64,000 bases of DNA, from assembly GCF_003019035.1 (NCBI RefSeq), contig NZ_CP027447.1; one strand, given 5' to 3'. Positions 33,707-64,000 of the stretch are shown in pieces; position 1 is the stretch's first letter, and the number at the start of each line of letters is the position of its first letter. The translations under genes were made by a program, and so were the position numbers. Under the pieces are notes generated by a model. It was not told the DNA's origin, searched no databases, and was given only the letters and a program-made list of their open reading frames with translations. Source of the stretch: Escherichia coli (GTDB lineage: Bacteria > Pseudomonadota > Gammaproteobacteria > Enterobacterales > Enterobacteriaceae).

Positions 33707-33719
33707 GACAGTTTCCTGA

Positions 33720-36958: not shown

Positions 36959-36982
36959 AATTACCTCTGCATCCTGACGCAT

Positions 36983-41724: not shown

Positions 41725-41879
41725 ATTATCCCCCTAAAACGGTATTCCTGTCGGAACCGCACCTGTTTTGTTCTGAAGCGTATTCAGAACAATATTTTCC
41801 GTTGCTAATGCCAGTGAACAGACTTTGGAAATTGTCCCGAAACGGCTTCGTTTCGGGACACCGTTACCGTTAAACGTTA

Positions 41880-43280: not shown

Positions 43281-43359
43281 TTTAAACTCCTTAAAATGAT
43301 TGGATCGCATTAAAAAAGTAGGATTTATCGATAAAGTAAGCAAGTGCAAAGGACTCGTG

Positions 43360-43379
43360 TTTAAATAACAAAATCCTAA
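43360..43379 (-). promoter_or_regulatory. GAD box (GadE-binding site) upstream of gadB
   Basis: Reverse complement reads TTAGGATTTTGTTATTTAAA. Confidence 0.6.
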
Positions 43380-43641
43380 TGTTATTTATCGCGAGATATT
43401 ATGTGAATTATATTTTATCATTGAAAATCAATATATTACTGAATTCTTGGGTGGTGGCAAGGTGTTTTATGCTGTTATTTTTATGCACTTTCTACGCCTC
43501 CTGAATTATCACGTAAAAATCAGACCTTAAAATATCACTATTAGCACTCGGCTATTATTTTGAACGCATTTATAAAATTATTACATAAAAATGGCGAATA
43601 TTGCTAAAATCCCCGCCAACGAGGTGTTGACGGGGCTGTGA

Positions 43642-46437
43642 TTATTTTGGCAATAATACTCCGGTATAGGTATTCACCGGATGAGAAAGATATTGTTTAA
43701 CGGCAGTGTTAACATTCTCTACCGTCATTTGTTTCAATAATTGCTCCTGCTCAGTCCATGCTGCAGGATCGTCATATTGAATAAGACTATTTACAATGGT
43801 GTTCGCTAATTGTTGAACGCTACGCTGTTGGATATCGAGGCTGCGCTGAACGTTTTGCTGGTATTCATTCAGTTCTTGCTCACTGATCCCTTTAGCCAGA
43901 CGCTTAACCATCACTTCATTCGCTAACGTTAACAGTTCATCATGTCGTTCTGGTTGACAAGTAAAAGCCAGCAAATGACTGATATCTTTGGCCTGAGGAT
44001 CAACCGAGAGACGAGAAGAAACGCTGTATGCTCCAGATGCCTGTTCACGAATATTAACGCGTAGATCTTTTGCCAGTGCGACGTTAAAAGCATCGAGCGC
44101 CATACGCGTCTCCAGATTTACAGGTGTCCGGGAATCATAACGCTTCCACTGTGAAACCTGTGCCACAGGTTCATTTTGTTCTTTTACAGTAACCGATGCG
44201 TTGTCCGTCGCGCGAGTTAATGGTTTACCTGCGGCTAATGGCGAATCAGAGTGTTTGATTGATCCTAAGTAACGCGTAATTAACGCCACGAGTTTGTCTT
44301 CTGCGACATTACCGACAATGACAAACGTGATATCCGCTGGAGATGAAAACAACTGGCGATCGGCAGCCAGCGCATCTGCGGCAGTAAACTGTGCAATCTG
44401 ATTTTCTTGCGGTAATTTCGTGCGGTTATCAGCATAGCGCGTCTCATACATCTGCTGGGCGAATTTCTCCGCTGGACGCTGGTCGAGCGTTTTCAACGCC
44501 TGAATTTGAGCATTTTGTAGCGATGCCCAAATATTATCGTTAATCGTGCTGTGGGTGATTCGCTGGTTAATCAACTGGAAACCAGGTTCAGGGTTATTAG
44601 TCCGCGCGCTAACAGAGAGCAATGTATTCATGCCACTGACTTTACTGCTCATGGTTACCGAGTTTTCCGCACTCCAGCGTTTCAGGCTGGAAGAGGAGAG
44701 TTCACCAACGCCGCTTCCGCTTACTGCTTTATTTGCCAGCGCGATAAGTGATTTTTGCTGCGCAGGGAAACTTAAATCGCCTTTATTAGATACGGCAGTA
44801 ATTTGTAGCTTTTGCTCTTCACCCGCGGATTTTGCCAGAATAACCCTGGCACCATTGGAAAGTGTTAATGATGTCAGATTCTCAGCCAGCGTTTCTTTGC
44901 TGCTAATTTCCGCCTGTGGGTCAGCGTCTACTGTTAACGATAAATTTCTGCCTGGGAAGATGTAAGCTGCCAGCTTTTTGTTGGCGTACTCTTTTTCCAG
45001 CGCCAGGATAGCCGCAGGAGACAATGCTTTTTTGGCGGCAACTTCATTGTTTACCATTTGCTCCCAAAATGCGTCCTGGTTCTTTCTTAACTGCTGCCAT
45101 TTTTCCGCCAGACTTTGCACGGTAATTTGCTGCCACAGACGTTTCGAAAGTTGATATGTCTCTTCCGGCGACAAGAACGGCGTATTATTTAATGAGCTGG
45201 ATGCCAGGCGACTGGTCAGCATACGTAAATCACGCTCAGCTTGCTGATCAACCGCATTTTTCAGCCAGGTAAGGCGGGTAGATTTAACATCATCGAGTTC
45301 TTCAGCAGAAAAGCCATGCTGATCAATGGTTGCCAACTCTGCCATTAATGCATTCGCAGCATCCTGCATATTATCGTCTTGTGCATTTACACGGAAAAAC
45401 AGCGACTGATAATCGGGTGCAATTTTGACGCTGCGCGCAGTGCCGCCAGAAATAGTCTTCAACTCGCCCGACTGTATGCGTTCTTGCAGACGTTGGTTGA
45501 ACAGCTGAACTAACATGCTCCATTCAGCTTGTTCGATAAAGCTTTGCTCATCGCTCACTTGCACCATTGGCAGGCGATAATAGAGTGCGATGCCGTTCAC
45601 CCGGTTTTCTTTATCATTGATGATATTAAAGCGCAGGTGGTTTTCGGCTTTTGTCGGCCAGACGCGATTTTCAGCTGCTTTGTTAGCCGGAAGCTTACTT
45701 AAATTATCCTTTATCAGCGCCAGCGCTTCTTTACTGTCGATATCGCCGACCACAATAAAGGTCATATTATTTGGTTGATACCAGCGTTGATAAAATTGGC
45801 GCAATTGTGCCGGTGTGACCGTGGCGACGGTATCCATCAGGCCGATAGGTTCACGGTCTAAATTACGGGTATTTGCCAGCAGGAAAGGGCGGCGCGCCTG
45901 AGAGGTGCGCCATTTCGCATCCTGATGGGCACGCCATTCCTCAGTAATTACGCCGCGTTCAGCGTCTACTTCGAGTTTTTCAAAGGTTGCGGCATTACTC
46001 CATTCACTGAAGATTGCCATCACTTGTTGCAGATTTTGTTTCTGCGTAGTCGGCAAACTCACCTGATACACTGTTTCGTCATAGCTGGTATAGGCATTAA
46101 CATCGCGACCAAAACGCAGGCCCATTGACTCAAATGTTTCGATGACTTTATTACCCGGCCATGTTTTTGTGCCGTTAAACATCATATGTTCTACAAAATG
46201 AGCCACGCCGCGCTCATTGTCCTCTTCCTGCAATGAACCGGTATGAATTTGCAGCCATAAATTTACCTGATCCTTTGGTTGAGCATGCGGATAAATCATA
46301 TATCGCAAGCCATTGTCCAGTTGCCCGGTAATTAACTTTTCATCCTGCGGTAAGGCGGCGGCAATCAGTCGCCCGGGGAGCAACAGAGTTGCCACTAACG
46401 TCAGTAAGAAACAGAGGTTTCTCATAATTATCTCCAT
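43642..46437 (-). CDS. pqqL: Periplasmic M16-family zinc protease
   Basis: 931 aa; signal peptide; HFVEHMMFNG zinc-binding motif. Confidence 0.85.
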   Translation of the reverse strand: MEIIMRNLCFLLTLVATLLLPGRLIAAALPQDEKLITGQLDNGLRYMIYPHAQPKDQVNLWLQIHTGSLQEEDNERGVAHFVEHMMFNGTKTWPGNKVIETFESMGLRFGRDVNAYTSYDETVYQVSLPTTQKQNLQQVMAIFSEWSNAATFEKLEVDAERGVITEEWRAHQDAKWRTSQARRPFLLANTRNLDREPIGLMDTVATVTPAQLRQFYQRWYQPNNMTFIVVGDIDSKEALALIKDNLSKLPANKAAENRVWPTKAENHLRFNIINDKENRVNGIALYYRLPMVQVSDEQSFIEQAEWSMLVQLFNQRLQERIQSGELKTISGGTARSVKIAPDYQSLFFRVNAQDDNMQDAANALMAELATIDQHGFSAEELDDVKSTRLTWLKNAVDQQAERDLRMLTSRLASSSLNNTPFLSPEETYQLSKRLWQQITVQSLAEKWQQLRKNQDAFWEQMVNNEVAAKKALSPAAILALEKEYANKKLAAYIFPGRNLSLTVDADPQAEISSKETLAENLTSLTLSNGARVILAKSAGEEQKLQITAVSNKGDLSFPAQQKSLIALANKAVSGSGVGELSSSSLKRWSAENSVTMSSKVSGMNTLLSVSARTNNPEPGFQLINQRITHSTINDNIWASLQNAQIQALKTLDQRPAEKFAQQMYETRYADNRTKLPQENQIAQFTAADALAADRQLFSSPADITFVIVGNVAEDKLVALITRYLGSIKHSDSPLAAGKPLTRATDNASVTVKEQNEPVAQVSQWKRYDSRTPVNLETRMALDAFNVALAKDLRVNIREQASGAYSVSSRLSVDPQAKDISHLLAFTCQPERHDELLTLANEVMVKRLAKGISEQELNEYQQNVQRSLDIQQRSVQQLANTIVNSLIQYDDPAAWTEQEQLLKQMTVENVNTAVKQYLSHPVNTYTGVLLPK

Positions 46438-46481
46438 GCGAAAACCGGGCGAATTTACCCGGTTAAGTAAAATCCGAACTA

Positions 46482-48854
46482 TTAAAATTTCATGCTGACA
46501 TCAAGCCAGAAAGTACGGCCACTGGCGTAGGTCGCCACACCGGTATTCGTTGTATCAACAGCGGTTTTGCTATCCAGTACATTGAGAATATCGGCACTGA
46601 ACGTCAGGTTTTGTTGTTTCAGAAATTGTGGCGTCCAGGACAAGCGGGTGTCCCAGGTCAGGCTGCTATCCAGTTTTTCGTCAACATACTGCTTGTAATC
46701 TGAATATTCGCTGATGTATTGCGCATTCGTCTTACCCAGGATAATGCGAGCTTTACGCGCTTCTTGCCAGGTCAGCGTATTCGCCCACACCAACCCGTTC
46801 GGTTGATGCGTGAAATCCATGTTTAAGGAGATCTTTAGTGGATTATTAAAATCCGCCACTGGAACGCTATCGTAAGAGACCAGATTACCGTTATAAACCA
46901 CCTGGTTATCACCGGTATTGCTCTCCTCATAACCATTGTTTAACGACAAGTTGCCCTTGCTCTTGATATAGCTAAAGACAATTTGCGGGTTAATATCTAC
47001 CTGGCTGATATGCAGGGGTTCGGCCAGTTCAAAACTGAGGTTGAACGAATGCGTTTTGGTTTTGCCGTCGTTGTTATATTCAGTAATGGTGGTTTTAGTC
47101 GCGCTGTCGGTACGACTGCTTTTGCTGATTTGATCATGCGCTTCACGGTAAACATAGTTTGCGCGCGCAATAACGTTCTTACTGATTTTTTGCTGCAATC
47201 CCATTGCCAGTTCATCGTTATAAGGCGTTTTCAAATCCTGATAACGCGTCAGGGTTTTATTGCCTGATACCGATTCCGTCCAGCTATTGCGAATATCACG
47301 TAATCCCATATCAAGAATATTCCCGCCATAGTAACGGTTATAACCTGCGGTAATCATTGAGGTTTGATCAGCAAAAATATCCCATTCCGTCATAAAACGC
47401 GGGGAGATATTGTGGTTTGACAGATAGTTGTCATAGTCATACCGCACGCCGGGCATTAATGACACATTACGCCAGCTAATGCGATCCGCCATATACAGCG
47501 TGTAGTTGTCAATTCCCAGGCTGCCTTTACCTTTATGGTAAATGGTATGGTTAGTTTTCTTTCCGGCAGCATTAATCACATAGGATTCAGACTGGTTATG
47601 GCGTTCAGTCCATGCATCGGAATAGATGTATTCCGCGCCGAAGTAGGGTTGATGCGAAACATTACCCACGGTGAATTTTTGCCAGTCCAGGCGTGTTTTG
47701 AAGGTGTAATTATCTACAGCCTGGGAAATGTGTCCTAATCCGCCACGGGTGCAACGCCCTGAAATATCACCATATGTACATGAAAGTTCGGTGTACCAGA
47801 TGTCATGATCGTGACGGGTATAATCACTAATATGATCCCAACCAACGGTGGTACGCAGTTTGGCCCATGCGAGCTGGGTATCCATATCCCATGCCAGACC
47901 ATAGGATTTATTACCCATTTCGCGATCAGACTCCGGGAAGGTGCTGGTATTATAATCACGGCTGGAGCCGGTATATTTTAAGGTTAAATCGTGGGTAAAG
48001 CGGTCGCTGGCAAACCAGGTAAATTTGCTCAATGCAGTATCGATAACGTTTTTATACTGTGCCCGGCCGGCGACAATGCCGTCATTCGAAACATAATCCG
48101 CGCGGGTGATATCAGACTGGCGGCGCGATAAACCGGCGGTAACGCCAAAGTTATCAGCGAGTTCCTGATTAAACGACAAGGTATAAAAGTTCTTTTTAAA
48201 ATCTGGAGAGTAATAAGTACTTCCTGAAGAACCTTGATTAAATGCGCTCTTGTTATTCTCATCGATATGCGATGTTAACCAGTCCGAACGCGTAGTGCGA
48301 TAACCCAGTTTCACGCTGCTATCATCAGCGTTGAAGCGTTTGATCTTTGCATCAATTACCCCGCCATTGAAGCGACCAAATTCAACCGGCACAAAACTGT
48401 CATAAAGCGTCACATTGTCCAGTAAGCTGACATCAAGATAATAGCCCTGTGACATCCCGCTAATATTGGTTGCACTACTGGCATCGGACTCATTCGCTGG
48501 GTTCAGGTTATTCGTTGCACTAATGCCATCAATCAAATAGGCATTCTGGTAGGGCGACGCACCGTGAATAGAGATTTTCTCCGGGCGAATATCTCCCTGG
48601 TTCAATGAGGTACTTTGCGTTGAATCCATGCGTACCGCAGGGTTGGTTCTCAGCAGATCGCTGATATTGCCATTCCCGGTCGGTAAACGCTCGATGCTTT
48701 CACTGGTGTAATGCGTGTTGCCGTTTACGGGTACAGGGACAGGAGCATAGACCGTCATCTCTTCAAAAACATGCATGTACATATTTTTGTCATCGACGGC
48801 CTGCGCTACATCAGCGCCACATAAAATGACGCCAGGAATAAGAACTCGCTTCAT
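46482..48854 (-). CDS. yddB: TonB-dependent outer-membrane receptor
   Basis: 790 aa; signal peptide; C-terminal aromatic residue. Confidence 0.85.
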   Translation of the reverse strand: MKRVLIPGVILCGADVAQAVDDKNMYMHVFEEMTVYAPVPVPVNGNTHYTSESIERLPTGNGNISDLLRTNPAVRMDSTQSTSLNQGDIRPEKISIHGASPYQNAYLIDGISATNNLNPANESDASSATNISGMSQGYYLDVSLLDNVTLYDSFVPVEFGRFNGGVIDAKIKRFNADDSSVKLGYRTTRSDWLTSHIDENNKSAFNQGSSGSTYYSPDFKKNFYTLSFNQELADNFGVTAGLSRRQSDITRADYVSNDGIVAGRAQYKNVIDTALSKFTWFASDRFTHDLTLKYTGSSRDYNTSTFPESDREMGNKSYGLAWDMDTQLAWAKLRTTVGWDHISDYTRHDHDIWYTELSCTYGDISGRCTRGGLGHISQAVDNYTFKTRLDWQKFTVGNVSHQPYFGAEYIYSDAWTERHNQSESYVINAAGKKTNHTIYHKGKGSLGIDNYTLYMADRISWRNVSLMPGVRYDYDNYLSNHNISPRFMTEWDIFADQTSMITAGYNRYYGGNILDMGLRDIRNSWTESVSGNKTLTRYQDLKTPYNDELAMGLQQKISKNVIARANYVYREAHDQISKSSRTDSATKTTITEYNNDGKTKTHSFNLSFELAEPLHISQVDINPQIVFSYIKSKGNLSLNNGYEESNTGDNQVVYNGNLVSYDSVPVADFNNPLKISLNMDFTHQPNGLVWANTLTWQEARKARIILGKTNAQYISEYSDYKQYVDEKLDSSLTWDTRLSWTPQFLKQQNLTFSADILNVLDSKTAVDTTNTGVATYASGRTFWLDVSMKF

Positions 48855-48891
48855 TTATTTATATCTCCGTACAGCAGGGCTTTTATTGTTT

Positions 48892-50577
48892 TTATAAAAC
48901 CGCGCTAATGTCACAAATATCATCGGCCAGGTTCCAGACACCGGGTTGATGTGTAACCATAATGACGCCGCTTGTGGGGAGTTTTTCTCGCACTAAACGC
49001 AGTAAGCGGATTGCCTCTTGTTCCTCAAGATGAGAGGTAGTTTCGTCAAGAAATATCCATTTCGGACGTCGTAAAATTAATCGAGCCAGGGCGATACGTT
49101 GTTTTTCGCCGCTGGAAAGAATATCTCCCCAGCGATCGTGGTCATGAATACGCGCAGCCAATTTCCCCAGTCCAACCTGATGCAGTACTTCACTCAACGA
49201 TTTATCGTCTACGGACAGGGGAAGTGCTTTACAAATAATCTCTTTCAGTAAGCCGGTTTTGATTAACGGTGTTTGTGACACATACCAACTGTCAGCAGGA
49301 GAAGAAATATCACCTTTAAACCACGGCCAGCAGTGGGATAATGTTTTAAGCAGTGTGGTTTTTCCCGCACCAGAGTAACCTTTCAGCAATAGCCATTTGC
49401 CTGGCAAAACATGAAAGTTCAGGTTCTCTAATATGATCTTATTATCAGGAGTACGAATACTCGCGTCAGCCACTTGTACCGCATGTTGGCAATTTTTAGG
49501 CTTATTCGTAGGGCGCTGTTCGGTGAGTTGATGGAACTCATACAAGCGATCGATAACCGCAGCCAGTTCAGCAAGTTCATCATATTTATAAATAAACCAG
49601 CTTAAATTGTTCGATACCAGCATAAATGCCTGGCGCGATTTCATCAGTCCGCCCAGATTGATCTGTCCGCTAATAAACTGCGGCAATAACAGAAAGTAGG
49701 GAAGAACGCTAAGCGAGCGCGAATAAATATTCTGCCAGTAATCAAGCCACCGCTGACGATTCATTAAACGATGCCAGTTCTCTTTAATGGTATGAAAATT
49801 TTCGCTCAACTCCTGGCGTTGTAGAGACTCAGCATTGCTTAGCGCAATCAGTTCTGCCTGCTTATTATGCTGCACAAGATTAGTTCGAAATGTCGCTTCG
49901 CTACGTTGTTTTTCCACATTAAGCGGACGAATACGTTTACCAACCTTATGGGTAAATAAAGTTCCACCGATCACAATGAGCACGACGGTATAGACCATAT
50001 ACCCCTGGATATTCCATTCAGTTCCACCAACAGTGAATGAGAGCGTACCCGCGCTTTGCCAAAGAATAACGGTAAAGGTGATCAGCATGCTAAGTGACTG
50101 GATGAAGCCAAATGAAAGACTGAGCGTTTTGCTGATCAGTAAGAGAATGTCTTCAGCGATACGTTGGTCAGGGTTATCTGTATTTTTATGCTCGCCGTAG
50201 ATCTGCGTGAAGTAGTAGTTTTTATCTGCAAACCAGCGATTAAGGTAGTAATCTGTTAACCATTCGCGCCAGCGAATAGTCAGTAGTTTAATTAACCATG
50301 TTTTGTTTACGGATATTAATACAAAGATCCCCAGCAGGGCAGGGAACCAAAGGACAAGCTGCCAAAGCTTATCAGTTTCTTTCTGGCTTAGCGCATTGAA
50401 AAAATCATTATTCCAGTCGTTTAACCAGACCTGAATTTTAACCACGCCAAGGATCATGGCGAGGATAATAATGATTAACAACACTGAAGTTTTATTATTC
50501 TTACGCAGCCAAAAGGGCTTCAGCAGACAGAGATACTTTGCTATCAACATACAAAACGTAATGGGAATGGTTATCAT
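48892..50577 (-). CDS. yddA: ABC transporter, fused permease and ATPase
   Basis: 561 aa; Walker A (GYSGAGKTT) and ABC signature (LSSGEKQR). Confidence 0.85.
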   Translation of the reverse strand: MITIPITFCMLIAKYLCLLKPFWLRKNNKTSVLLIIIILAMILGVVKIQVWLNDWNNDFFNALSQKETDKLWQLVLWFPALLGIFVLISVNKTWLIKLLTIRWREWLTDYYLNRWFADKNYYFTQIYGEHKNTDNPDQRIAEDILLLISKTLSLSFGFIQSLSMLITFTVILWQSAGTLSFTVGGTEWNIQGYMVYTVVLIVIGGTLFTHKVGKRIRPLNVEKQRSEATFRTNLVQHNKQAELIALSNAESLQRQELSENFHTIKENWHRLMNRQRWLDYWQNIYSRSLSVLPYFLLLPQFISGQINLGGLMKSRQAFMLVSNNLSWFIYKYDELAELAAVIDRLYEFHQLTEQRPTNKPKNCQHAVQVADASIRTPDNKIILENLNFHVLPGKWLLLKGYSGAGKTTLLKTLSHCWPWFKGDISSPADSWYVSQTPLIKTGLLKEIICKALPLSVDDKSLSEVLHQVGLGKLAARIHDHDRWGDILSSGEKQRIALARLILRRPKWIFLDETTSHLEEQEAIRLLRLVREKLPTSGVIMVTHQPGVWNLADDICDISAVL

Positions 50578-50867
50578 TAGCGAAAATTTATTGTGCCATC
50601 CAATGATTATCTATGGCAATGATATACTGATGAAATTTATTTAAGTATCATTTAACAATATGAAATATAAAGAAATATTTCATTTTCAGTGGTTATGGTT
50701 ATGCTATTGATAATCAAGGGTATTGCTAATGCCCTGACGCATACCTCGTAAGCCAGGATTTTCGCAAAGGAAGATGATGAAGACGAAACACCCGACAGGA
50801 ATTTATGTCGGGTGCCTTGTTAAGGTCATAAGAAGGAGGCTAAGAATGGAGCTAAGGGGGAGCGTTA

Positions 50868-52040
50868 TTAATTATTCTCCATTTGTTTTGCAACATCCAT
50901 AATGTGGTAAAGCGGTACTCTGTTCTTAGCTAACTCCACCATGGCGTTCATATAAGGTACCATGGTTGAAAAAAGGATTTTATAACCTTCGCAAAAATAG
51001 GAAACAGTCTCATTGTTTACTTTAGTAATACGATGCTTAGGGCAACCACCATTGCAGATAGGTTTATATGCACATTGCTGACATTTCGCTGAAATCCGTT
51101 TTTTTTGCGCTGTCAGTTGAACACTGTTCATCGTTTTGAGTTCAGATTTATTAATGTTTCCAATTTTGTACTGTGGATAGACAAAATGATCGCATTCGTA
51201 AATATCTCCATTACTTTCAACAACCAGATTATCCTTGCAGGATTCCTGGAAAATACAACTGGTATGCCCATTCCCCAAAAAACGGCTGACAAAGCTTTCA
51301 AACTGACGGATGAAAATTTCACCCACATCGTTTTTAACCCATTGCATAAAAATGGTTGACATAAACTTGCCATAAGCCGTGGGAGGCACAGAAAAATCAA
51401 TGATACGGAATGTGTTCTCACTATGACCACTGAAATCAATATTCGGCGTCCCGGTTTCTAGCAATTCGATAAATTGCATATGTTTACTGCCGATAGATTT
51501 TAAAAAATGATAAACCTCATGAGGGTAATGGACATTAACGTTATTAATGACGGTTAACGTATTAAACTCTACTTGATATGATTTCAGACGCTCGATGGCT
51601 GCTATCACTTTTGCAAAAGTACCGTTGCCTGAATTACTGCGTCTGTAACGGTCATGTAGCTCCTGGGGGCCATCGATCGAGATACCAACCAGAAACTCAT
51701 GTTCTTTGAGAAAGGCACACCATTCATTATTCAATAAAATGCCATTCGTTTGTAATGCATTAAAAATACGTTTTTGGCCTGCATAGCGTTGTTGATAGTG
51801 AATAACTTTACGGAAAAAATCCAGGCCAGCCAGAGTGGGTTCACCCCCTTGCCAGGTAAAATAGACCTGATTGCCAGACGCTGCGATATATTGTTTGATG
51901 AACTCTTTCAGAGTGCTGTCATCCATCCATTTTTCATGAGTAAACTGCGACTCTTTTTCAAGGTAAAAACAGTAATCACATTTGAGATTACATTGAAAAC
52001 TGGAGGGCTTGGCTGTAACGTGCATCGCTATCTCGCTCAA
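50868..52040 (-). CDS. ydeM: Radical-SAM anaerobic sulfatase-maturating enzyme homologue
   Basis: ORF has two candidate ATG starts; CxxxCxxC-type motif (CNLKCDYC). Confidence 0.8.
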
Positions 52041-52076
52041 TAAGGCGGCGGAAAAATCCGCCGCATGAAGGTTTAG

Positions 52077-53759
52077 TTATTTCGCTTCGCTTAGTGCTTT
52101 CTTGATATTGTTAAACTTCTCCTGATTTACCTCGCTAAGCGGTGGTTGGCTGCTGTCGATAAACTCTCTTACCACGCCTTGCATCTCTTTAACGACCTGC
52201 GGATTGGCGGCCGCAAGGTTATCTTTTTGCTGTAGATCCGTCAGTTTGTATAGACCTAACTGATTGTTTTCTACTGTATAGACTAGCGAATAATCGTTAT
52301 TTCTCACCGTATAAGAGAATTGGCTTAAATCCTCGGTGTTGGGGTTATGCGGGTAATCGTCTGACTGATGGCGGACAAATTTGTGGTAATTATCCCAGAA
52401 GGGAATATTTTCCTCATCAAACCAGTGAGAATAAGAGGTTATCCAGGTCAGATTTTTATGTGGCTCGCCTTGTTTCTTATCTTGCAACCACGGCAGCAAG
52501 GAAACGCCATCCAGCTTAAGGTCTTTTGGAATGCTGATATCGGCTGCATCAAGAGCTGTCGGGTAGAAATCCATTGCGGAAATCAGCTTGTCATAATTAC
52601 CGGGTTGAAGTTTTCCTTTCCACCACATAAACATTGGGGTGTGAGTACCGCCAGGATAAGTCTGACTCTTATAGCCTTTTTGCGCCCCGTTCAGCGGCAG
52701 AGGACCATCGATAACCGCACCATTATCGGAGGTAAAGAGAATAATAGTATTGTCATACTGTCCGTTTTTCTTCAGTTGTTCGAGAATGCGTTTTACACCC
52801 TGATCAACAGAATAAACGGAAGCGTAGTAGTTATCTGCTGTTTGACTACCGGTATTAAATTGCTTCTGATATTGCTCCGGTGCAGGATTATCATTTGGCA
52901 GGTGCGGAGCATTATAAGCCAGGTAAAGCATAAAAGGCTGGTCAAGTGTTTTGGCACGATCAACAACGCCAATTGCCTCATCGGTTAACTGATCGCTGAT
53001 ATAACCTTTTGCTGGGACGCGTTCACGGTTTTTGAACAGTGAAGGGGAGTTGTAATATGCCGTTCCTGCAGCGTGGAATCCCATAAAGTAATCAAAGCCA
53101 CGGTTTTGAGGTTGCCATTCTTCCGCAGAAAATGTGGTGAAGTTGTCATGATAGTCACGCGTTTGTTTATCTTCCGGTACCGGCACATTACTGATTTTTG
53201 ACAAGTGCCATTTACCTACTGCTGCAGTGTAATAACCATGATTCTGGAATAATTCAGGCAAGAAAGTTTCTGTTAGCGGAATACCATCCTGAGCATCGGT
53301 ATTGGAATAGACACCAAAGCGGGCGGGCGCTCGACCGGTCATTATTGCGGCGCGGGAGGGGCCGGAAACACCGTGCGCCACATAGCCGTTAGTAAAACGT
53401 ACGCCTTCATCCATTAATGAAAGGAGCGTCGGCGTTGATTTTTGCGCAGCTTCAATGGCTTTATCTATCCCTATTTTGTAGGTATCGACAACTTCACGAT
53501 TTTCCATTGTTTTTGGGTCAAAAGATCCCTTATCAAAAGGAAGTTGTCCATAACCAAGATCATCCATGGTCAGTACGATAATATTTGGCTTTCCTTTGGT
53601 ACTGTATTCAGTCGGCGTAAAGTCTGAGAAAGCAACGTTTGTTTTGGTTGCTTTCAGCTTTACATCATCTGCCGCATGAGCAGCAAATGCAGCCATACCA
53701 GATGCCAGTATCAAAGATATCGAGGTACTTACGACACTTTTCTTTAATGCAGACTTCAT
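52077..53759 (-). CDS. ydeN: Sulfatase
   Basis: 560 aa from MKSALKK... with signal peptide; the six-frame ORF has a 60-codon upstream extension. Confidence 0.85.
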   Translation of the reverse strand: MKSALKKSVVSTSISLILASGMAAFAAHAADDVKLKATKTNVAFSDFTPTEYSTKGKPNIIVLTMDDLGYGQLPFDKGSFDPKTMENREVVDTYKIGIDKAIEAAQKSTPTLLSLMDEGVRFTNGYVAHGVSGPSRAAIMTGRAPARFGVYSNTDAQDGIPLTETFLPELFQNHGYYTAAVGKWHLSKISNVPVPEDKQTRDYHDNFTTFSAEEWQPQNRGFDYFMGFHAAGTAYYNSPSLFKNRERVPAKGYISDQLTDEAIGVVDRAKTLDQPFMLYLAYNAPHLPNDNPAPEQYQKQFNTGSQTADNYYASVYSVDQGVKRILEQLKKNGQYDNTIILFTSDNGAVIDGPLPLNGAQKGYKSQTYPGGTHTPMFMWWKGKLQPGNYDKLISAMDFYPTALDAADISIPKDLKLDGVSLLPWLQDKKQGEPHKNLTWITSYSHWFDEENIPFWDNYHKFVRHQSDDYPHNPNTEDLSQFSYTVRNNDYSLVYTVENNQLGLYKLTDLQQKDNLAAANPQVVKEMQGVVREFIDSSQPPLSEVNQEKFNNIKKALSEAK

Positions 53760-54160
53760 AAATGTTCCTCTTCTTATTGTACTTAATTCCAAAGTAATTT
53801 TACGAAGAGAAATAAGTGGATGTAAGTGAAGTGAGTCACATAAAGAGATAGCAGATTTAGCTAAAAAAAGAGAAATAACAGTCCATAAACTGTTGACATT
53901 ACTTTCTGTTCTACTAAGTAATTTCTCGTTGATAAACAACTAATCTATTGATATTTAACAAATTATTTAATTTCACCGACAAAATACCGAATTGAGATCA
54001 TAAATAATCATGCAACGGGTTATGCAAATGCATAAATATGTGATGGCTGTCACTTATTTATTTCAAGAAATATATCACCTAAAAACAACGCGGGGCAGGG
54101 AATGGCTGCCCCATTTAATTCTTACGCAGCGTGTGTGGTTGACTACTCGTTAGCAAATAA

Positions 54161-54922
54161 TCAAATAGCTAAAGCACTCATCGTGTTGTCCGTGTTCATA
54201 CCGGTGTGCCTTTGACAACGGTACTCCTTAGAAACTCTCTTTGGACTGTTGCCGAAATGTTTGCGGAACGCATAAATAAAATAAGATGTACTCGCATAAC
54301 CACATTGTTCGGCAATTTTATTGACTGAACCTTCTACGCGTATCAAATTTTTTGCGTGCTGCATTCTGGCATCTAAAAGAATCTGTGAGAATGTCGTTTG
54401 CTCTTGCTTTAGTTTTTTCTTCAACAGGCTTTCACTGATGTACAGGCAGTCACAAATATCTTTCAGCTTCCATGGGTGCGCCAGCTTCATGTTGACAATA
54501 TTTCTCACTTTCCCGGAAACGGATAGCACACCGTTAGTTAATAGTGTAATGAAACCTTTGCATGCGGCAAAAATAGACAGGCAAGAAAAAAGCAAAAGTT
54601 CTGAAAAATTATGATGATTGCGTTCTTCCGAGTTGAGATAAGCAATCATTTCATTAAGCAATCCAGTCGGTACATTTGAAGCACGTAAAAACTTCGCAGG
54701 AACAGGCACCGTCACTGTCTGGATGTTAGTGCATTGTAGATATTTTTTAATGGTATTTTCATTAAATCCGATTTCTTTAAAATGCCGCTCATAAGGTTCA
54801 AAATGTGTACGAACAGCGTTATCTACCATCAGGATCTCGCCGTCAGAGAAGGCGTAATCTTTATCTAAAATGTTAGCGTTGAAAGCATGATGAATAAATA
54901 TAACAGAACAAACGAGCGACAT
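54161..54922 (-). CDS. ydeO: AraC-family acid-resistance regulator
   Basis: 253 aa; C-terminal AraC-type helix-turn-helix. Confidence 0.85.
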   Translation of the reverse strand: MSLVCSVIFIHHAFNANILDKDYAFSDGEILMVDNAVRTHFEPYERHFKEIGFNENTIKKYLQCTNIQTVTVPVPAKFLRASNVPTGLLNEMIAYLNSEERNHHNFSELLLFSCLSIFAACKGFITLLTNGVLSVSGKVRNIVNMKLAHPWKLKDICDCLYISESLLKKKLKQEQTTFSQILLDARMQHAKNLIRVEGSVNKIAEQCGYASTSYFIYAFRKHFGNSPKRVSKEYRCQRHTGMNTDNTMSALAI

Positions 54923-54995
54923 TTTATCTCCTTAAAACAATAAAGTTTTATCGATACCTTTTAAACATTTCACATTTATAATTTGCTGTTTATTT

Positions 54996-55193
54996 TCAGT
55001 CTTGCAAACTATTGATAATGAAATGTGTAAGATCTCTTGCAATGCGACCCATTTCTGAAATACTCAGCTGATCAATTGCCGAAAAAATGGCTATCAACGT
55101 AAGTGTCAGTAATAAGACAACCACAATTACAGACATGATTTCTTTATAGTTGTCTCTTTGCGTGATTTTGTTTTTCACTGTGGTCGCATGCAT
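54996..55193 (-). CDS. safA: Small membrane two-component connector protein
   Basis: 65 aa, single transmembrane helix; upstream of ydeO. Confidence 0.75.
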   Translation of the reverse strand: MHATTVKNKITQRDNYKEIMSVIVVVLLLTLTLIAIFSAIDQLSISEMGRIARDLTHFIINSLQD

Positions 55194-55440
55194 TTCAAAT
55201 ATGTTTATTTAGCGGATAACGTTAAAAATCGTAAATCAGTATGCTTAATATAACAGGCTGGATAAAAGAGGAAATAGGACTGGTGCTTCAGTACTGAGCG
55301 GAGTTTCTTACAGCTGTAGGCAGAAGTTTATATCTTATAGTATGTAGTTTAATTTAATCCATATGAGCAAATTGCGTGATAATAGTCAATGAGGAATTCT
55401 TCTGCTGTGCGGATGACAGCAGAAGAAATGAGAAGAGGCA

Positions 55441-57720
55441 TTAATTTGATGGTTCTAATTCAACCGGAATACTTTTATAGCCAGGAATGCCACTTAATGG
55501 ATCGTGGTTATCAAGTGTTAGCATGTGATTCGATTCTGGAAAATAGGTCACCAGTGAGCGGTCAGCCATAGGGTAAATGACCACTTTTAATCTATCCATG
55601 CGGCGTGAGCTTCGCTTACCGTCTGGCGTAAGCGCAATAAGATTAACTCTTTCGCCGTTTTTTACACGGCAAATTTTAGCTTGTTTAGCACTCATAAAGA
55701 CCACATCTCGTTGACCGAATACCCCTCGATAGCGATCATCCATACCATAAATCGTCGTGTTGTACTGATCGTGACTGCGTACTGTCGCCATGACTAGCTT
55801 ACTGTTAAACGCTGAAGAGGGATCTTCTAACAGCCCTTTACTGGTAATGAAATTAGCCTTACCTGACGGCGTCATCCAGCGCCTTTCAGCAGCTGCATTT
55901 ATCAGGTGAAAACCACCGGGATGACGGATGCGCTGGTTATAGTCGGCGAACTCTGGCAGCACAGCTTCAATGTCATTGCGAATGCGATCATAATCTTCCA
56001 CCAGATACTCCCAGGCTACCACGCTCTGGGGTAGTGCTGCCTGCGCGATTCCCGCGACCACTGCACACTCTGATTTCAGCATTACACCGGCGGGTTTTAA
56101 CACACCACGCGAGGCATGAATCATCGACATTGAATCTTCAACGGTTACCGCCTGCGCACCGCTTTTTTGCATGTCAATCTCGCTACGTCCCAGAACCGGC
56201 AGAATATAGCTATGCCGTGCGGTCAGCAGATGAGAGCGGTTAAGCTTAGTGGCTACGTGTACCGCCAAATCTAATTGCGTTAACGGTACAGCGCTCGCTT
56301 CCCGATCTGGCATTGCCAGCGCAAAGTTGCCCCCCATGCAGATCAATGCTCGAGCTTGCCCCGTACATATTGCTTGCATGCTGGCAATTGCAGCATGTCC
56401 AGGTGCATGAGGTGGGGTGAAACCATAGCGCTCACCCAGGCGAGCCAGAAACTCTGCAGACGGTTTCTCGGTGATACCGACGGTTCGGTCGCCCTGTACA
56501 TTAGAGTGACCTCGTAGTGGGCAGATGCCCGCACCAGGCTTGCCAATGTTACCTTTCATCAACAGCAGATTGACCAGTTGCTGTACATTCTGGGTACCAT
56601 GTTCGTGCTGAGTGATCCCCATTCCGTAACAGATAATGGTGCGTTCGGCAGCGGCATATGCATCAGCCAGTTCGGCGATTTGAGTCTGACTTAGTCCAGA
56701 AATACGCTCGATATCTTTCCACTCGGAATTGAGAACGTCACGGCGTAGCTCGTCAAAGCCGACGGTATGCGTTTGAATAAATTCGTCATCCAGCAATGAG
56801 GGCCGACCTGCGGCGCTTGCAGCATCATCGCGCTCAATTAACAGGCGCATCATCCCCTTGAGCAACGCCATATCACCACCAATGCGCACGTTGTAGTAGG
56901 CACTGGCCAACTGAGTCTCAGAGTTCGTCAGCATTTCAAACGGGTTTTGCGGTGCGGTAAATCGCTCCAGGCCACGTTCCTGTAGAGGATTGATGGCGAT
57001 CATTTTCGCTCCCCGTTTCACTAAAGCGCGCAACGAAGTCAACATGCGAGGGTGGTTTGTACCAGGGTTATGCCCAATGCAAATGACTAAATCGCATTTC
57101 TCAAAGTCTTCCAGCAACACGGTCCCTTTACCTACACCGATACTCGCTGCCAAACCCACACTGGTCGGTTCATGGCACATGTTGGAGCAGTCGGGGAAGT
57201 TATTGCTCCCGTATTCACGGGCAAAAAGCTGATAAAGAAAGGCAGCTTCATTGGAAGTGCGGCCCGAAGTATAGAATTCAACCTGATTGGGATCACTATA
57301 GCTTTGAAGGCGTTCGCCAATTTCGTCGAAAGCTTGTTGCCAGCTTAATGGCTTGTAACAGTCGCTGACGGCATCATATTTCAAAGGCTGGGTGAGACGC
57401 CCCGCAGCCTCAAGCTCGTGATCTCCCCAGGTAAGTAATGATTGAACCGTATTCTCAGCAAAGAAAGAGGCATTTACCTGCTTATCCGTGACTTCCCAGG
57501 CGATTGCTTTTGCGCCGTTTTCACAAATGTCGAATGACGCACTGTGCTTAGGATCTGGCCATGCACAACCCGGACAGTCAAAGCCCTCTGGCTTATTCAT
57601 GTCAAACATGGCAATAACATCCTGGCGTATATCCATCTGCTTACGTACTGCATTCGCTACGGATTTAACAGCACCCCAACCACCGGCAGCCCCCTGGTAG
57701 GATTCAATTTTTTTCTTCAT
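55441..57720 (-). CDS. ydeP: Molybdopterin oxidoreductase (formate dehydrogenase-like), acid-resistance associated
   Basis: 759 aa; N-terminal Cys cluster. Confidence 0.85.
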
Positions 57721-58052
57721 CTACTTATCCTGTGTGGAAATGAATTATTAGGATTTGTAATAGCGATGATGCACAGTATATACAAAGGGATTATCGTCAA
57801 TATGGATATATAAGAGTAGGGGACTACTCTCTTTCTATTTTAATCTATTATCGTTAAACAAAAGATTAAATACGATAAATTAAGCATCATCTCTCATAGT
57901 GTTTAAATTAACATATTTTTCAATATAAAAAATAAGACTCTGGCTTCAATTGTGCGCGGATTTTCTTACAGATGTAGGATAATAGCCTTCACAAAATAAT
58001 TATCCGCGCAATTTTCGTGAATGGAGCGCATAGACTAAGGTCAAAATCACAA

Positions 58053-58967
58053 TTATTCATAGATAAAAGTGACACCAATGACTGACTGGACGGTTCCGGC
58101 TGCAACCTTGTTTCCTGTTTGTCCATAGGTTGCGCTTAAACCCAGAGGTACTTTGCTTTTATTTACTGTCCCCAGGGAGACGTTTTCTCCCGTAGCCAGT
58201 ATTTTTCCATTACGCATCAGAGAGACACCCACTCCCGATGCTTTTGTTGCATCTGGTGCTGTGTTAGCAAACACTTGTCTGGCACTGTCAGTGGTAGCAC
58301 CCGAAAGATAAAATGAGAGCTTTTGTTCACTTGAGCAATATACGCCAAGGGGTATTTCTGCGCTTCCAGGAAAGTCAGGGAGATTCACGGTGACATTACG
58401 ACTATCAACGGTGCAGCCGCCTGTTGGCATAACAACACTGTTATTTGAAATAATATTCCACGTAAAATTACGCGGATTTCCGCTTCCTAACGTGGCAATT
58501 TTATACATATGAATACGGGCAATAACTTCCCCAGCTTTTATGACAACTCCACCGGCCGCACCGACTGGGGTAATATAGAGTTTTAACGGTAATGGCATCG
58601 GTGTCTTATCACCAATATCTAATACATTAGTATTTGTCGTCAACGGGAAGGGGTAGGTCACATTATTCCAGTACAGCGATCCTTTATATGACTGTAGGGA
58701 GCCTGCGAAAGCTGAGCCTTGTACCAGGTTTATATGATCAGTGTCGTACCAGCCGCCGTAATCATTCCAGCAACTTATATGCTGAGACAAGTCTACAACC
58801 AGATTCTGGCCCGGTTGTATTACAGGGTCGAGATTAACATAAACAGAGGTTGTACCTGCTCCAATACTTGACCCGCCATCGACATTACAACTGAAGGCAA
58901 AAACTTTGCCTGCCATTAATAGAAGATAAATACTGAACAGAACCTTTATACTGAATGTTTTACCCAT
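58053..58967 (-). CDS. ydeQ: Fimbrial tip adhesin (FimH-like)
   Basis: 304 aa; signal peptide; last gene of the chaperone-usher operon. Confidence 0.8.
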
Positions 58968-59025
58968 GATATATCCTAAGGTTAAAAAATTGATTTAAAT
59001 AGAGGCAAAAAAAATCAAATTGATG

Positions 59026-59529
59026 TTATTGCCAGGTATAGATCACATTGATTAGCGACTCGATCGTTCCCTGGCTTGCGTTTCCATTCACCGTGATAGC
59101 TCTTGCCTTAAGTGGAAACTGTGCATTACGAGTGATCTCATCAACAATAACCGTTTTGCTATCGCCATTTTTTAACGTCGCATCCTGGTCATCCCTTAGC
59201 TCTATCTGAATATTTTCGGCAGTACCTTCATTTTTGTAATAACCCGTATTGTCAGTTGAACCTGTCACGATTGCCGTCACTGCACTTGTTTCAATCGGAC
59301 AATCGGTTAATGACAAAGTAATATTGTGCCAGCCAGATGCAGAACCAGGTTGTTGCAGATTGCGTGTATAAAGATCCCCGAGATTAACGTTAGCTTCTTT
59401 GGTTTGAATAGTGCATGGTTTAGCGACTACCCGACCATTAACAGTGATAGTGACATCGGCGGCCTGGAGAGTTGCTGTGAATAATGTGCAAAACGTAGCT
59501 AACAGGAACCTCTTGTGAAGTCTTTTCAT
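59026..59529 (-). CDS. ydeR: Fimbrial minor subunit
   Basis: 167 aa; signal peptide; pilin-like C-terminus. Confidence 0.8.
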   Translation of the reverse strand: MKRLHKRFLLATFCTLFTATLQAADVTITVNGRVVAKPCTIQTKEANVNLGDLYTRNLQQPGSASGWHNITLSLTDCPIETSAVTAIVTGSTDNTGYYKNEGTAENIQIELRDDQDATLKNGDSKTVIVDEITRNAQFPLKARAITVNGNASQGTIESLINVIYTWQ

Positions 59530-59541
59530 ATCTGACTCTGA

Positions 59542-60072
59542 TTATTGAAATTCAAGGGTAAAGGTTGCCGAAGCGCTCACCAGTCCAGGATTGACGGACT
59601 TCTGAGTTGACTTCAAACGAGCGGAGTAAGGCAAAATATTGTTCTGTTCTGGTACCAATGGGATCCACTGCATCCCGGCATGAAGGTCATTCAATTTCAC
59701 CGGACGCATATTTCCGTCCAGTATTTCTATACCCAAACCGGAGGCCGTATTGCTTCCTTCATCCAGTTTCAACAGAGTATTATTTTCTGCATCCTCAATA
59801 CCGTTAAATGCAACCCGAACTCCCGTTGTCCCTTTGCTGCATTCACTTAATGTAATCTGAAAAGGGACGGCTGGACTTGTGCTACCGGTCGTTGGAAATT
59901 GTCTGGCACTGTTTTTTTGGAGATCTACGGTAAAATTAAGCGAATCCGATGAGACTGTGCAGCCATAATCGAGGACGCGCCCGCTAATTTTAATAACGCT
60001 ATCTGCAGATAAAGCAGAATAGGTGGTTAACCCCAGACATAAACCGAGGAAAATAATGTTATTGTATTTCAT
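59542..60072 (-). CDS. ydeS: Fimbrial minor subunit
   Basis: 176 aa; signal peptide. Confidence 0.8.
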   Translation of the reverse strand: MKYNNIIFLGLCLGLTTYSALSADSVIKISGRVLDYGCTVSSDSLNFTVDLQKNSARQFPTTGSTSPAVPFQITLSECSKGTTGVRVAFNGIEDAENNTLLKLDEGSNTASGLGIEILDGNMRPVKLNDLHAGMQWIPLVPEQNNILPYSARLKSTQKSVNPGLVSASATFTLEFQ

Positions 60073-60085
60073 AATCTATTGTTCC

Positions 60086-62737
60086 TTAGCGACAGATTGC
60101 TGTCTGCTGGTTCAGTAAGGTACCAGGAGAAACTTCAGGAAGCTTGTACTCGACAATACAGTTTGAGTTTTTATCTTTGCCCCATGAAACCTGTAATTTC
60201 CCTGACTGTGGAAGTCCAGTCAGATAAACCTGACCGTTTTCCGCGACAATGCTGCCATTTTTATTCTCTCCATGTGTGACAATTGCACCGAATGGAACGC
60301 TCTTATTACCGTACTTCAACGTCATTAATACTTTCCCGCCGATTTGTGCATTAAATGTTGCTCTGGCAATAGCACCGTGAGTTGGGATGACAGTGACAAC
60401 GGTTTCATCCAGTTCAACATTATCTGCAAGGGAATTCGCGTTAAGAGCGACACGATTTTCTCTATATTCTGTCGCAAATGGTAATATGGCATAGCCACGC
60501 CAGTCGGTATGAATTCCGGTCTGGTTCTCTATTTTGACATTATCAGCGCCAGGAGCCTTAACCAGAACCATTGTGTCGCCCAGCGGCTGTCCAAAGGTGA
60601 TGCCATCAGCATGAGCAATAATCCCACCACTCATTCCGTAATAAATCTGGCTGCTGTCACCACTCCGACTGTAACCGACATTCGTATTACCGTAAGCTCC
60701 ACGATAATTAAGAGAACTGTAACCACTGGTGCCAGACGATGTATTACCCCCTTGGGTGTTACCGACCTGAACGCTATAATTCAGGTTATTATCCGGCAGC
60801 AGAGTGCCATAAACCCCTGATAGGTTGGTCATGCCGCCTTTCAAATCGTTTGACATACTGTAACTGGCGTTTGAATTACGAAATGCCGACTGACTGTCTG
60901 TACGCATCCAATGACTGAAGGGAACATTAAGCGTAAAAGCAAGTAAATGATCCCGATCGTTTTGCCATATATTATTGGAATAGCTGTAATTCAGCGAAGT
61001 CGTAATATCACCAAACGGCACATTTAATCCAAATGATATTTGCTGGTCGCTGCGTGACGTGTTCCAGTAACTTTGGCGACTGGCACTGAAAAATGTCGTA
61101 CCGTAATGTCCAAGCTGCTGAGAGATGCTTATTTGTTCCTGACCACGCTTACTGTAAAACAGATTAAAATAATCAATAAATAGTGTCTGCTCATTGCTGT
61201 CTCCGGTAGGAGGCTTGACGGTGTAACCACTCATTCGACTGTATGCACTGTCGGATAAGTTATAAAAACCTTGCGTAGAATAGCGATATCCTGCGACCTG
61301 GATATTGGTTCCCGTCTGGTAGAAGGATTTGCTGTAGACGGATTTAACCGATTGCCCGCTGTGACGGGTGCCATCTGCAAGTGTCGTATTGGCCTGCGTG
61401 ATATCGAAAGAAAAGGCACCAAAAAGTCCTAAATCTTTACCAATACCAAGGTTGAAGGCCTGATATTCTTCTGCAATTTGTATTCCGCCATAAGGTGTCC
61501 AGTTTCCTTTCAGACCATGCATCAAGCTTGCTTGTACGAACTTGGGGGAGCTTTGCAGGTTATTTCCACTACGATATTCCCCCATGGCAAGCGCATAACG
61601 CGTATATCCAGCACGTTGGAGAACCGGAACAGACGAATAAGGAACATATAATGTCTGAATACTGCCGTCTGCCTCTTTTATAGTTACTTGCAGATCACCA
61701 CCATTGGCCGCAGAGTTGATATCATCAATAGTAAAAGGGCCGGGTGGAACAGTAGTCTGATAAACATCGTATCCGTTCTGTTTTACACTCACTTGTGCGG
61801 TGCCACGGGCAATACCATGAATCACCGGAGCGAAACCATGTTGGCTATCGGGCAACATCGCTTCTGTTGAATTTATTTTTAGGCCACGAAAGTTCACACT
61901 ATCAAAAATATCGCCATCGGTATAACTATCACCTACCGTTAAGCGTGAGCGTAAGGGAATAATGTCACGTTCAGCCGACGTATTGATATGCTGCCATTTA
62001 TTGCTGTCAGATGAATTGCTACTCCCACTGTTATAACTCCACGTTGAGTTATCGCGCAGTCGCCAACTACCAATGTTGATGCCACTCTGTAAATTCAAAT
62101 ATGCATAGTTGGATTTTCCAGCATTATGGTTACTACGATTATTAATAGAATTACCATTAAAACTATAGTTTAGAAGCCCAGCATTTATTCCTTCTTCCCA
62201 CAGATCAGGAGAAACATAGCCGCGAGCCATTCTGCCAACATATATTTGCGGAACGGAGAGTGACAGATGTTGCTGACCAACATCAAACTCAGATGATGCG
62301 TCAGCCAAACGATCCTGGAGTGGTGTGCATGCGCTGTTGTCCGGCACATGTTTTTCTGCCGAATGTTCCTTGTTGTCTAATAATGCTGATTTTTTTATGC
62401 CAAGACTGACAAGAAGGTCTGTACTCAGGCATGGGATGAGATCTGCGTTATTATCATCTGCAATAAAAGTAATATCCCGACTAGTCATAAATTCGTCGTT
62501 CAAATAAATGTCGACCCGATATGTACCAGGTGGTGCCTCGCGCCCCTTAGTAAAGGCGGATAAATCGACAGATTCAGCAAGATCATTGCTTAAAAACCGT
62601 GGATTAAAATAATACTCTGCGTCAACGGGAAATACCGCAGTTGCTAAGCCAAGGGCAATGGTAAGCCGTGCAAAGCGAGGCAGTAGTAACACCTGATGCA
62701 TACGATATGCCTTAAATGCGGCACGAAAGGCTGTCAT
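60086..62737 (-). CDS. ydeT: Fimbrial usher (FimD-like), apparently intact
   Basis: 883-aa uninterrupted ORF. Confidence 0.85.
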   Translation of the reverse strand: MTAFRAAFKAYRMHQVLLLPRFARLTIALGLATAVFPVDAEYYFNPRFLSNDLAESVDLSAFTKGREAPPGTYRVDIYLNDEFMTSRDITFIADDNNADLIPCLSTDLLVSLGIKKSALLDNKEHSAEKHVPDNSACTPLQDRLADASSEFDVGQQHLSLSVPQIYVGRMARGYVSPDLWEEGINAGLLNYSFNGNSINNRSNHNAGKSNYAYLNLQSGINIGSWRLRDNSTWSYNSGSSNSSDSNKWQHINTSAERDIIPLRSRLTVGDSYTDGDIFDSVNFRGLKINSTEAMLPDSQHGFAPVIHGIARGTAQVSVKQNGYDVYQTTVPPGPFTIDDINSAANGGDLQVTIKEADGSIQTLYVPYSSVPVLQRAGYTRYALAMGEYRSGNNLQSSPKFVQASLMHGLKGNWTPYGGIQIAEEYQAFNLGIGKDLGLFGAFSFDITQANTTLADGTRHSGQSVKSVYSKSFYQTGTNIQVAGYRYSTQGFYNLSDSAYSRMSGYTVKPPTGDSNEQTLFIDYFNLFYSKRGQEQISISQQLGHYGTTFFSASRQSYWNTSRSDQQISFGLNVPFGDITTSLNYSYSNNIWQNDRDHLLAFTLNVPFSHWMRTDSQSAFRNSNASYSMSNDLKGGMTNLSGVYGTLLPDNNLNYSVQVGNTQGGNTSSGTSGYSSLNYRGAYGNTNVGYSRSGDSSQIYYGMSGGIIAHADGITFGQPLGDTMVLVKAPGADNVKIENQTGIHTDWRGYAILPFATEYRENRVALNANSLADNVELDETVVTVIPTHGAIARATFNAQIGGKVLMTLKYGNKSVPFGAIVTHGENKNGSIVAENGQVYLTGLPQSGKLQVSWGKDKNSNCIVEYKLPEVSPGTLLNQQTAICR

Positions 62738-62778
62738 TATTAATTCCGATTGAGTTTATTATTAATTAGGTCACTGGC

Positions 62779-63498
62779 TTACTGCATGGTTGCCTTAATA
62801 CGCGGAGTTAATGCACCGTAATCATTGATCGTCTGAAAACTGATATCCCCGGTTGCAACATGCGGGATATCCACCGATACTTCACCTTTTGGCGGCACCA
62901 TGGTGTTTGGGAGATTGCTATTTCCTGCTTTCATATTTGTTACGGTAATGAAGTAGGGCGTTGGATTAATAAGAGTGAGTTTGCTACCGCTGCGACGAAA
63001 CCGAAGCATTGCTGGCGCTTCTTCAGGTGCCATTGCCAGGTTCGTGGGGCGATAAAACATTTTTATGCGGCTAATAATTGCCAGCTGTAATGAATTCTCA
63101 TTCTTCTGGTCTTTTTCCATAGCAGGAATAGCTTTAACATTAACCCAGAACAGGCTTTCACGGTCGCCTGGTAACTGATGATTAGTGGCGTTGATTATCC
63201 GCAGCGTATTCTCTTTTTTACCTTGCATGGAAAAAAGCGGTGGGGTAATGACAAACTGGGTGTCTTTTTGGTCACCTGCATTTTCTATCCATGACTGAAT
63301 GAGATAGACACTGGCAGGATCATTATTCGTGACAGGCAATAAAACCTGTTTCTGGTTTGCCGGATAAATTACCCGCGTCGCACCAAGTGCGACAGCTGCG
63401 TTGGCAATGGTGCTATGGCAAGCAAAGAGCAATAAAAGTAACACTGTCGCCATAAAGGAAACAGAGTAGGGGGTACGCGTAGTTTGCATCTGATGCAT
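62779..63498 (-). CDS. Periplasmic fimbrial chaperone (FimC/PapD-like)
   Basis: 239 aa; signal peptide. Confidence 0.85.
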   Translation of the reverse strand: MHQMQTTRTPYSVSFMATVLLLLLFACHSTIANAAVALGATRVIYPANQKQVLLPVTNNDPASVYLIQSWIENAGDQKDTQFVITPPLFSMQGKKENTLRIINATNHQLPGDRESLFWVNVKAIPAMEKDQKNENSLQLAIISRIKMFYRPTNLAMAPEEAPAMLRFRRSGSKLTLINPTPYFITVTNMKAGNSNLPNTMVPPKGEVSVDIPHVATGDISFQTINDYGALTPRIKATMQ

Positions 63499-63851
63499 TC
63501 TCCATGTGTTAAGAGGATAAGCGGGAAAACCGTTACATCAGACAATCAGTAAATGTTGCTAATACATTGGCGACTCGCCGGGTTTCCAGACTTAATGCGT
63601 TTGTAATAAATGTTGGTTCTCTTTTAATAGGAAAACCTTGCTACAAAGTAAATATTTTAAATAACAGTAAGTTTAACTACTGTTGTTTATTGATCGTTTA
63701 GATATTATGTGATTTTTTCATACCGCTCCAAAACACAAACTATTCCTCATTAATAATGAGATGAACATTGGTGAATTGCTCGGGTGTGCGTAGCCATGCC
63801 ACACACACCCTGTTTCAATTTCAGATGACGTATAGCCACCTTAAGATTGAA

Positions 63852-64000
63852 TTATAGATATTGAACTTTGAAGGTCGCATCTGCGTTTGCAGTACCAGCT
63901 ACTGACTGCCCGAGAGCAATATATCGAGCCTGGAACGGCAATATATTCGTGCCATCAATCAAGTCAGTTTTAGCGCTAAAAGTGGCACCATCAAGTATTA
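63852..64000 (-). CDS. Fimbrial major subunit, 3' part only (5' end off-window)
   Basis: Minus-strand frame ends ...[14 protein letters not shown] then stop at 63852-63854, typical pilin C-terminus. Confidence 0.5.

Follow-up and report, generated by a model that had tools for sequence, protein, structure and literature searches.

Identity, intactness and prevalence of a chromosomal F9-type chaperone-usher pilus operon in an Escherichia coli genome

From position 58053 onward, a 64,000-nucleotide stretch of Escherichia coli DNA (contig NZ_CP027447.1; referred to here, in its whole length, as the window) very probably holds the chromosomal F9 (Fml/Yde) chaperone-usher pilus operon in its intact, ancestral form. 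Five complete genes and the 3' end of a sixth are found there in the six-gene F9 order, and the sixth gene is complete in the genome of E. coli SCU-301 (NZ_CP051751), which matches the window at 100% identity over positions 50000-64000. The F9 operon in intact form is already known and has been experimentally characterised, and the finding, while correct, is an ordinary one.

Organisation and identity of the operon

The features of the region are collected in Table 1. Transcription runs from right to left through the genes for the major pilin, chaperone, usher, YdeS, YdeR and adhesin (YdeQ, also known as FmlH), toward ydeP, which lies on the same strand (-) and whose near end (the start, 57720) comes 333 nt after the adhesin gene. 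Of the major-pilin gene, which is 564 nt long, the other 415 nt lie beyond position 64000, as does the promoter; in the near-identical SCU-301 the gene continues to approximately 64415. An upstream in-frame ATG at 63498 would give the chaperone an alternative length of 239 aa. A scan of positions 57650-64000 for promoters and terminators returned signal counts at or below shuffled expectation, and no convincing terminator was seen after ydeQ.

Table 1. Coordinates of the operon genes and of the segment absent from K-12, in window positions
Feature	Position	Strand	Basis
ydeQ / fmlH, two-domain tip adhesin, 304 aa	58053..58967	-	ORF, Pfam and PDB match
ydeR, FimG-like minor (adaptor) pilin, 167 aa	59026..59529	-	ORF, Pfam Fimbrial, FimG match
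ydeS, FimF-like minor (adaptor) pilin, 176 aa	59542..60072	-	ORF, Pfam Fimbrial, FimF match
Outer-membrane usher, 883 aa, intact	60086..62737	-	ORF, Pfam, FimD alignment
PapD/FimC-like periplasmic chaperone, 236 aa (start of RefSeq orthologue)	62779..63489	-	ORF, PapD_N and PapD_C
F9 major pilin gene, 3' 149 nt (48 codons and stop), cut by window end	63852..64000	-	FimA-like
Segment deleted in K-12, part inside window	61313..64000	.	Pairwise alignments

SCU-301, which was isolated from a rectal swab of a healthy student, is not the strain of the window, being collinear with it only over positions 33405-64000, with six mismatches up to position 50000. Its annotation lists ydeQ, ydeR, ydeS, the usher, the chaperone, a 187-aa 'fimA', a pseudogene of an AraC-type HTH protein, and hipBA. 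The window itself thus displays the ydeP-side flank of the operon, and the hipBA-side flank is seen in SCU-301 beyond the window equivalent. This arrangement is consistent with the published description of the f9 operon, which places it between ydeP and hipBA (Wurpel et al., 2014; PMC3966885). A sequence-only reading of this DNA had assigned the region to the ydeQRST locus and had described an uninterrupted 883-codon usher gene, a full chaperone gene and the 3' end of a major-subunit gene on the same strand. Each of these elements lies where that reading had placed it, and the assignment is borne out by the position of the locus directly downstream of ydeP in window coordinates and by the names given to ydeQ, ydeR and ydeS in SCU-301. 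In its location on the ydeP side, its gene order and its adhesin, the locus is like the F9/Fml/Yde operons already described (c1931-c1936 of CFT073; fml of UTI89), from which it shows no substantive difference, although the allele in the window is a less common one.

The usher, which a hidden frameshift or premature stop would have rendered a fragment, bears none according to three comparisons. Firstly, its Pfam domains are complete (PapC_N 1-146 of 146, Usher 1-549 of 549, PapC_C 1-66 of 66). Secondly, residues 42-883 align to residues 2-833 of the solved FimD. Thirdly, alignment with the divergent orthologues of EC958 (ST131) and O157:H7 covers 883 columns with no indels at 98-99% identity. 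The comparison with intact versions in other genomes, as the earlier reading had proposed, further revealed an identical layout in EC958 (ST131, phylogroup B2) and O157:H7, in both of which the six genes have the same lengths as here (915, 504, 531, 2652, 711 and 564 nt). None of the six genes contains an internal stop when compared with EC958, and Nei-Gojobori estimates of dN/dS for the six genes, with EC958 as the sole comparison, were 0.06 for the adhesin, 0.30 for ydeR, 0.08 for ydeS, 0.09 for the usher, 0.25 for the chaperone and 0.05 for the major pilin. All six genes are under purifying selection.

The adhesin, its partners and their predicted assembly

The adhesin consists of a signal peptide (residues 1-24), a lectin domain (25-184) and a pilin domain (about 185-304); Pfam recognises in the protein the FimH_man-bind fold at 27-171 as well as a Fimbrial domain. 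Residues 25-184 are identical at 160 of 160 positions to PDB entry 6AOW, 'F9 pilus adhesin FmlH', and to its sister entries (5LNE-type). FmlH is galactoside-specific and contacts Gal-beta-1,3-GalNAc and galactoside inhibitors through F1, Y46, D53, K132, N140 and R142 (Kalas et al., 2018; PMC5866590); a check against the positions given in that paper found all six residues kept at their expected mature positions. Binding of F9 to Gal-beta-1,3-GlcNAc glycans has been described as well (Wurpel et al., 2014; PMC3966885), and published work has attributed to FmlH a role in chronic urinary tract colonisation. Given its identity to the crystallised and assayed FmlH, the adhesin of this host would be expected to recognise terminal Gal-beta-1,3-GalNAc and Gal-beta-1,3-GlcNAc.

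The remaining components resemble those of type 1 pili. Among solved structures the chaperone is closest to SfaE and FimC (E about 1e-88), and the cleft motifs 'GATRVIYP' and 'SRIKMFYRP' are conserved in the alignment with SfaE; the basic residues within these motifs are presumably the equivalents of FimC R8 and K112, as established knowledge of FimC and PapD would have it. Among the pilins, YdeR is most similar to FimG over its full length (E 1.5e-59), YdeS to FimF (residues 22-176 against 2-156, E 4e-39), and the major pilin, the full 187 aa of which were taken from SCU-301, is FimA-like (E 7.5e-68). In all three, the alignment with the respective counterpart (FimG, FimF or FimA) begins at the first mature residues, where the N-terminal extension for donor-strand exchange is located; in the adhesin the lectin domain stands in this place.

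The label that RefSeq gives to the first gene, 'fimA: type 1 fimbrial major subunit FimA', would make the region a copy of the type 1 (fim) operon instead. The Fim proteins are the best solved relatives of all parts, with FimA, C, D, F, G and H paralogous to their counterparts here in full-length alignments, and the label itself arises because three of the proteins score above NCBIfam equivalog cut-offs: the major pilin above that for FimA (174 vs 140), YdeS above that for FimF (239 vs 200) and YdeR above that for FimG (255 vs 220). The usher and chaperone, however, fall below their closest equivalog cut-offs (987 vs 995 and 258 vs 327), the locus is that between ydeP and hipBA rather than fim, and the lectin domain, identical to that of the galactose-specific FmlH, scores 362 bits against FmlH but about 130 against FimH lectin-domain chains. 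The pocket is of the galactoside-binding FmlH type, not that of the mannose-specific FimH. Moreover, no fimB/fimE, fimI or invertible switch is annotated nearby in SCU-301, EC958 or O157:H7, and in the same three genomes the annotation shows no recombinase gene from the major pilin to hipA, just the AraC-type HTH pseudogene. The 'type 1 FimA' label is an over-call of a paralogue, ruled out by the locus, the identity of the adhesin and the missing fimB/E/I, and the probability that the region is a fim copy is close to nil.

For the F9 operon, the type 1 pilus system offers a model of assembly. Since every component is a close paralogue of a type 1 pilus part, we infer standard donor-strand complementation and exchange. 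By analogy with that system, the pilus subunits would be exported by Sec, captured by the FimC-like chaperone through donor-strand complementation and delivered to the FimD-like usher, which would polymerise them by donor-strand exchange: the adhesin first, followed by YdeR and YdeS, and then the rod of major pilin. The predicted product is a pilus whose major-pilin rod carries a short fibrillum of YdeR and YdeS, tipped by the FmlH lectin. The host can probably make F9 pili, and the suggestion of the sequence-only reading that it may produce these fimbriae is a reasonable one.

The K-12 deletion and the prevalence of the intact operon

In MG1655, ydeQ, ydeR and ydeS are followed by a ydeT of 382 codons, with the yneL pseudogene and hipBA immediately beyond it. 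The sequence-only reading had described the K-12 usher as a pseudogene fragment, a description that holds as regards the fragment, MG1655 YdeT corresponding to the intact usher only in residues 502-883, but not as regards formal pseudogene status, given that RefSeq annotates the gene as a CDS for a 'fimbrial usher domain-containing protein'. K-12, as that reading had supposed, does not possess the same intact ORF. Pairwise alignment of SCU-301 and MG1655 placed the breakpoints of a clean deletion of 3,282 bp at positions 11313/11314 and 14594/14595 of the SCU-301 locus, equivalent to 61312/61313 and about 64594 of the window. The junction contains 1 bp of microhomology (a shared C) and lacks an IS element. 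Lost in K-12 are usher codons 1-475 (the 5' 1,425 nt), the chaperone, the major pilin and the 178 nt of leader next to the start codon; the remnant, comprising ydeQ, ydeR, ydeS and usher codons 476-883, is collinear with the intact operon, the usher part at about 99% protein identity. It is because of this deletion that K-12 carries an usher fragment and has no gene for the chaperone or the major pilin. K-12 retains the f9 promoter, with about 72 nt of the leader now joined to the middle of the usher gene, and the orphan ydeTSRQ genes could still be transcribed from this promoter.

The prevalence of both states was determined among 5,426 complete E. coli genomes. The 3,281-bp segment missing from K-12 is present, at a coverage of at least 80%, in 3,513 of them, while the K-12 junction is found in 1,375, or approximately 25% (200-bp probe, at least 80% of its length matched). 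Neither a laboratory origin nor an IS element accounts for the K-12 lesion, the junction being clean and common to 1,375 genomes. The intact F9 operon is the majority state, found in roughly two of every three sequenced E. coli, and the K-12 allele is a common natural variant. In an earlier survey, intact f9 was reported at a frequency of 61% among ECOR and 80% among UPEC isolates and was rarest in phylogroup A, and MG1655, DH10B, BW2952 and B strains were listed as 'D', or disrupted, for f9 (Wurpel et al., 2014; PMC3966885). The proposal that the host of the window is not a standard K-12 is upheld by the intact operon and, further, by a Mu-like prophage in the window that is absent at the same position in reference genomes.

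Natural lesions also bear upon the part of the operon outside the window. With only the 3' 149 nt of the major-pilin gene inside it, an operon that is intact in the window could still be non-functional were the major-pilin gene or the promoter disrupted beyond position 64000. Lesions of F9 do occur elsewhere: an IS2 insertion is found in strain 0H24, E. coli B strains have a different lesion at the major-pilin end, which is partly lost in C3029, the K-12-missing segment is only partially covered in a few hundred genomes, and several strains are among those scored 'D' by Wurpel et al. (PMC3966885). We nevertheless regard such a disruption as very unlikely in this host. SCU-301, with its complete identity to the window over the last 14 kb, has an intact major pilin of 187 aa and also carries the mapped promoter, the major-pilin end of the operon is carried to at least 80% by the 3,513 genomes counted above, and the five genes visible in the window are without decay.

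Promoter, allele and significance

The promoter of the F9 operon has been mapped in CFT073, where the transcription start lies 251 nt ahead of the ATG of the major-pilin gene, behind a -10 element CATAAT and a -35 element TAGTCG, and the f9 promoter has been shown to be bound and repressed by H-NS, with F9 expression seen at 20 °C (Wurpel et al., 2014; PMC3966885). In SCU-301 the equivalent promoter, located outside the window at a window-equivalent position of about 64666, has a G at the -251 start site, CATAAT at -12 and TAGTCA at -36, with a spacer of 18 bp. Specifically, the -35 hexamer is TAGTCA in SCU-301 as opposed to TAGTCG in EC958 and in the published CFT073 promoter. Published work on other strains describes repression by H-NS at 37 °C and expression at about 20 °C, and regulation and expression in the present host may follow the same pattern.

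The allele itself is rare. Only 4 of 5,400 matching records show at least 99% identity over window positions 56000-64000, most others falling between 95 and 99%, and the chaperone differs from that of EC958 by seven non-synonymous changes. That the -35 hexamer or the chaperone changes of this rare allele might alter pilus expression or assembly relative to the UPEC and EHEC alleles studied to date is conceivable, yet we consider it highly improbable.

The intact state of the operon is common and the pilus has already been characterised, and the finding therefore conveys little information beyond the statement that the host is not K-12; it has little significance past strain typing and raises no new question. 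For the organism itself, it means that the host is not of the K-12 type and is genetically equipped for adhesion through F9/FmlH, a property that in other strains has been tied to chronic urinary tract infection, to biofilm, and to attachment at low temperature or to plant surfaces.

Host kinship and the Mu-like prophage

The host is, by nucleotide comparison, a very close relative of E. coli SCU-301 with a Mu-like prophage as an extra, because only 6 positions differ across the 16.6 kb of chromosomal sequence at 33405-50000 and 0 differences are found at 50000-64000. The sequence at the prophage end, position 33407, reads ...TTCGTGCGCCGCTTCA, which we take to be the right end of phage Mu. The boundary between prophage and chromosome falls within ddpA, and this gene is thus disrupted in the host. 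At a coverage of at least 80%, window positions 20000-44000 were matched in 0 of 5,426 complete E. coli genomes, and the prophage-ddpA junction is therefore present in none of them.

Features of the window and of the neighbouring F9 region (L001, SCU-301 locus; L002, K-12 MG1655 locus; positions beyond 64000 projected from SCU-301)
Feature	Locus position	Window or window-equivalent position	Name or basis
Mu-like prophage, left half of window		1-33407	tape measure, DNA circularization protein, baseplate J and tail genes
YdeS and YdeR genes		59026-60072	
K-12 3,282-bp deletion junction	L002 10080/10081; L001 11313 to 14595	61312 to about 64594	
F9 major pilin gene	L001 13853-14416	63852-64415	RefSeq: fimA, type 1 fimbrial major subunit FimA
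AraC-family HTH gene fragment (yneL in K-12)	L001 14850-15116	beyond window, between f9 promoter and hipA	Pfam HTH_18, E 4e-22

Family labels of the F9 pilins

The NCBIfam "equivalog" models for FimA, FimF and FimG capture F9 paralogues as well, since three F9 proteins score above the respective cut-offs: the major pilin against FimA (174, cut-off 140), YdeS against FimF (239, cut-off 200), and YdeR against FimG (255, cut-off 220).

Lesions in and around the F9 operon

SCU-301, O157:H7 and K-12 all carry the AraC-family fragment upstream of the operon as a pseudogene, and SCU-301 and K-12 diverge in the sequence of its 5' part. In EC958, an ST131 strain, no AraC-family HTH gene is annotated between the f9 promoter and hipA. 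Within the operon itself, further natural lesions, independent of that of K-12, were observed among the E. coli genome matches (H56-H59): IS2 has inserted in the usher region of strain 0H24, E. coli B C3029 has lost the 5' end of the major-pilin gene, and a few additional genomes carry partial deletions.

On its promoter side, the K-12 deletion stops about 72 nt short of the mapped f9 transcription start, within the leader, and K-12 therefore retains the f9 promoter together with the first part of the leader, both joined to mid-usher sequence. The ydeT-S-R-Q remnant of K-12 could, judging from this arrangement, be transcribed from the retained f9 promoter.
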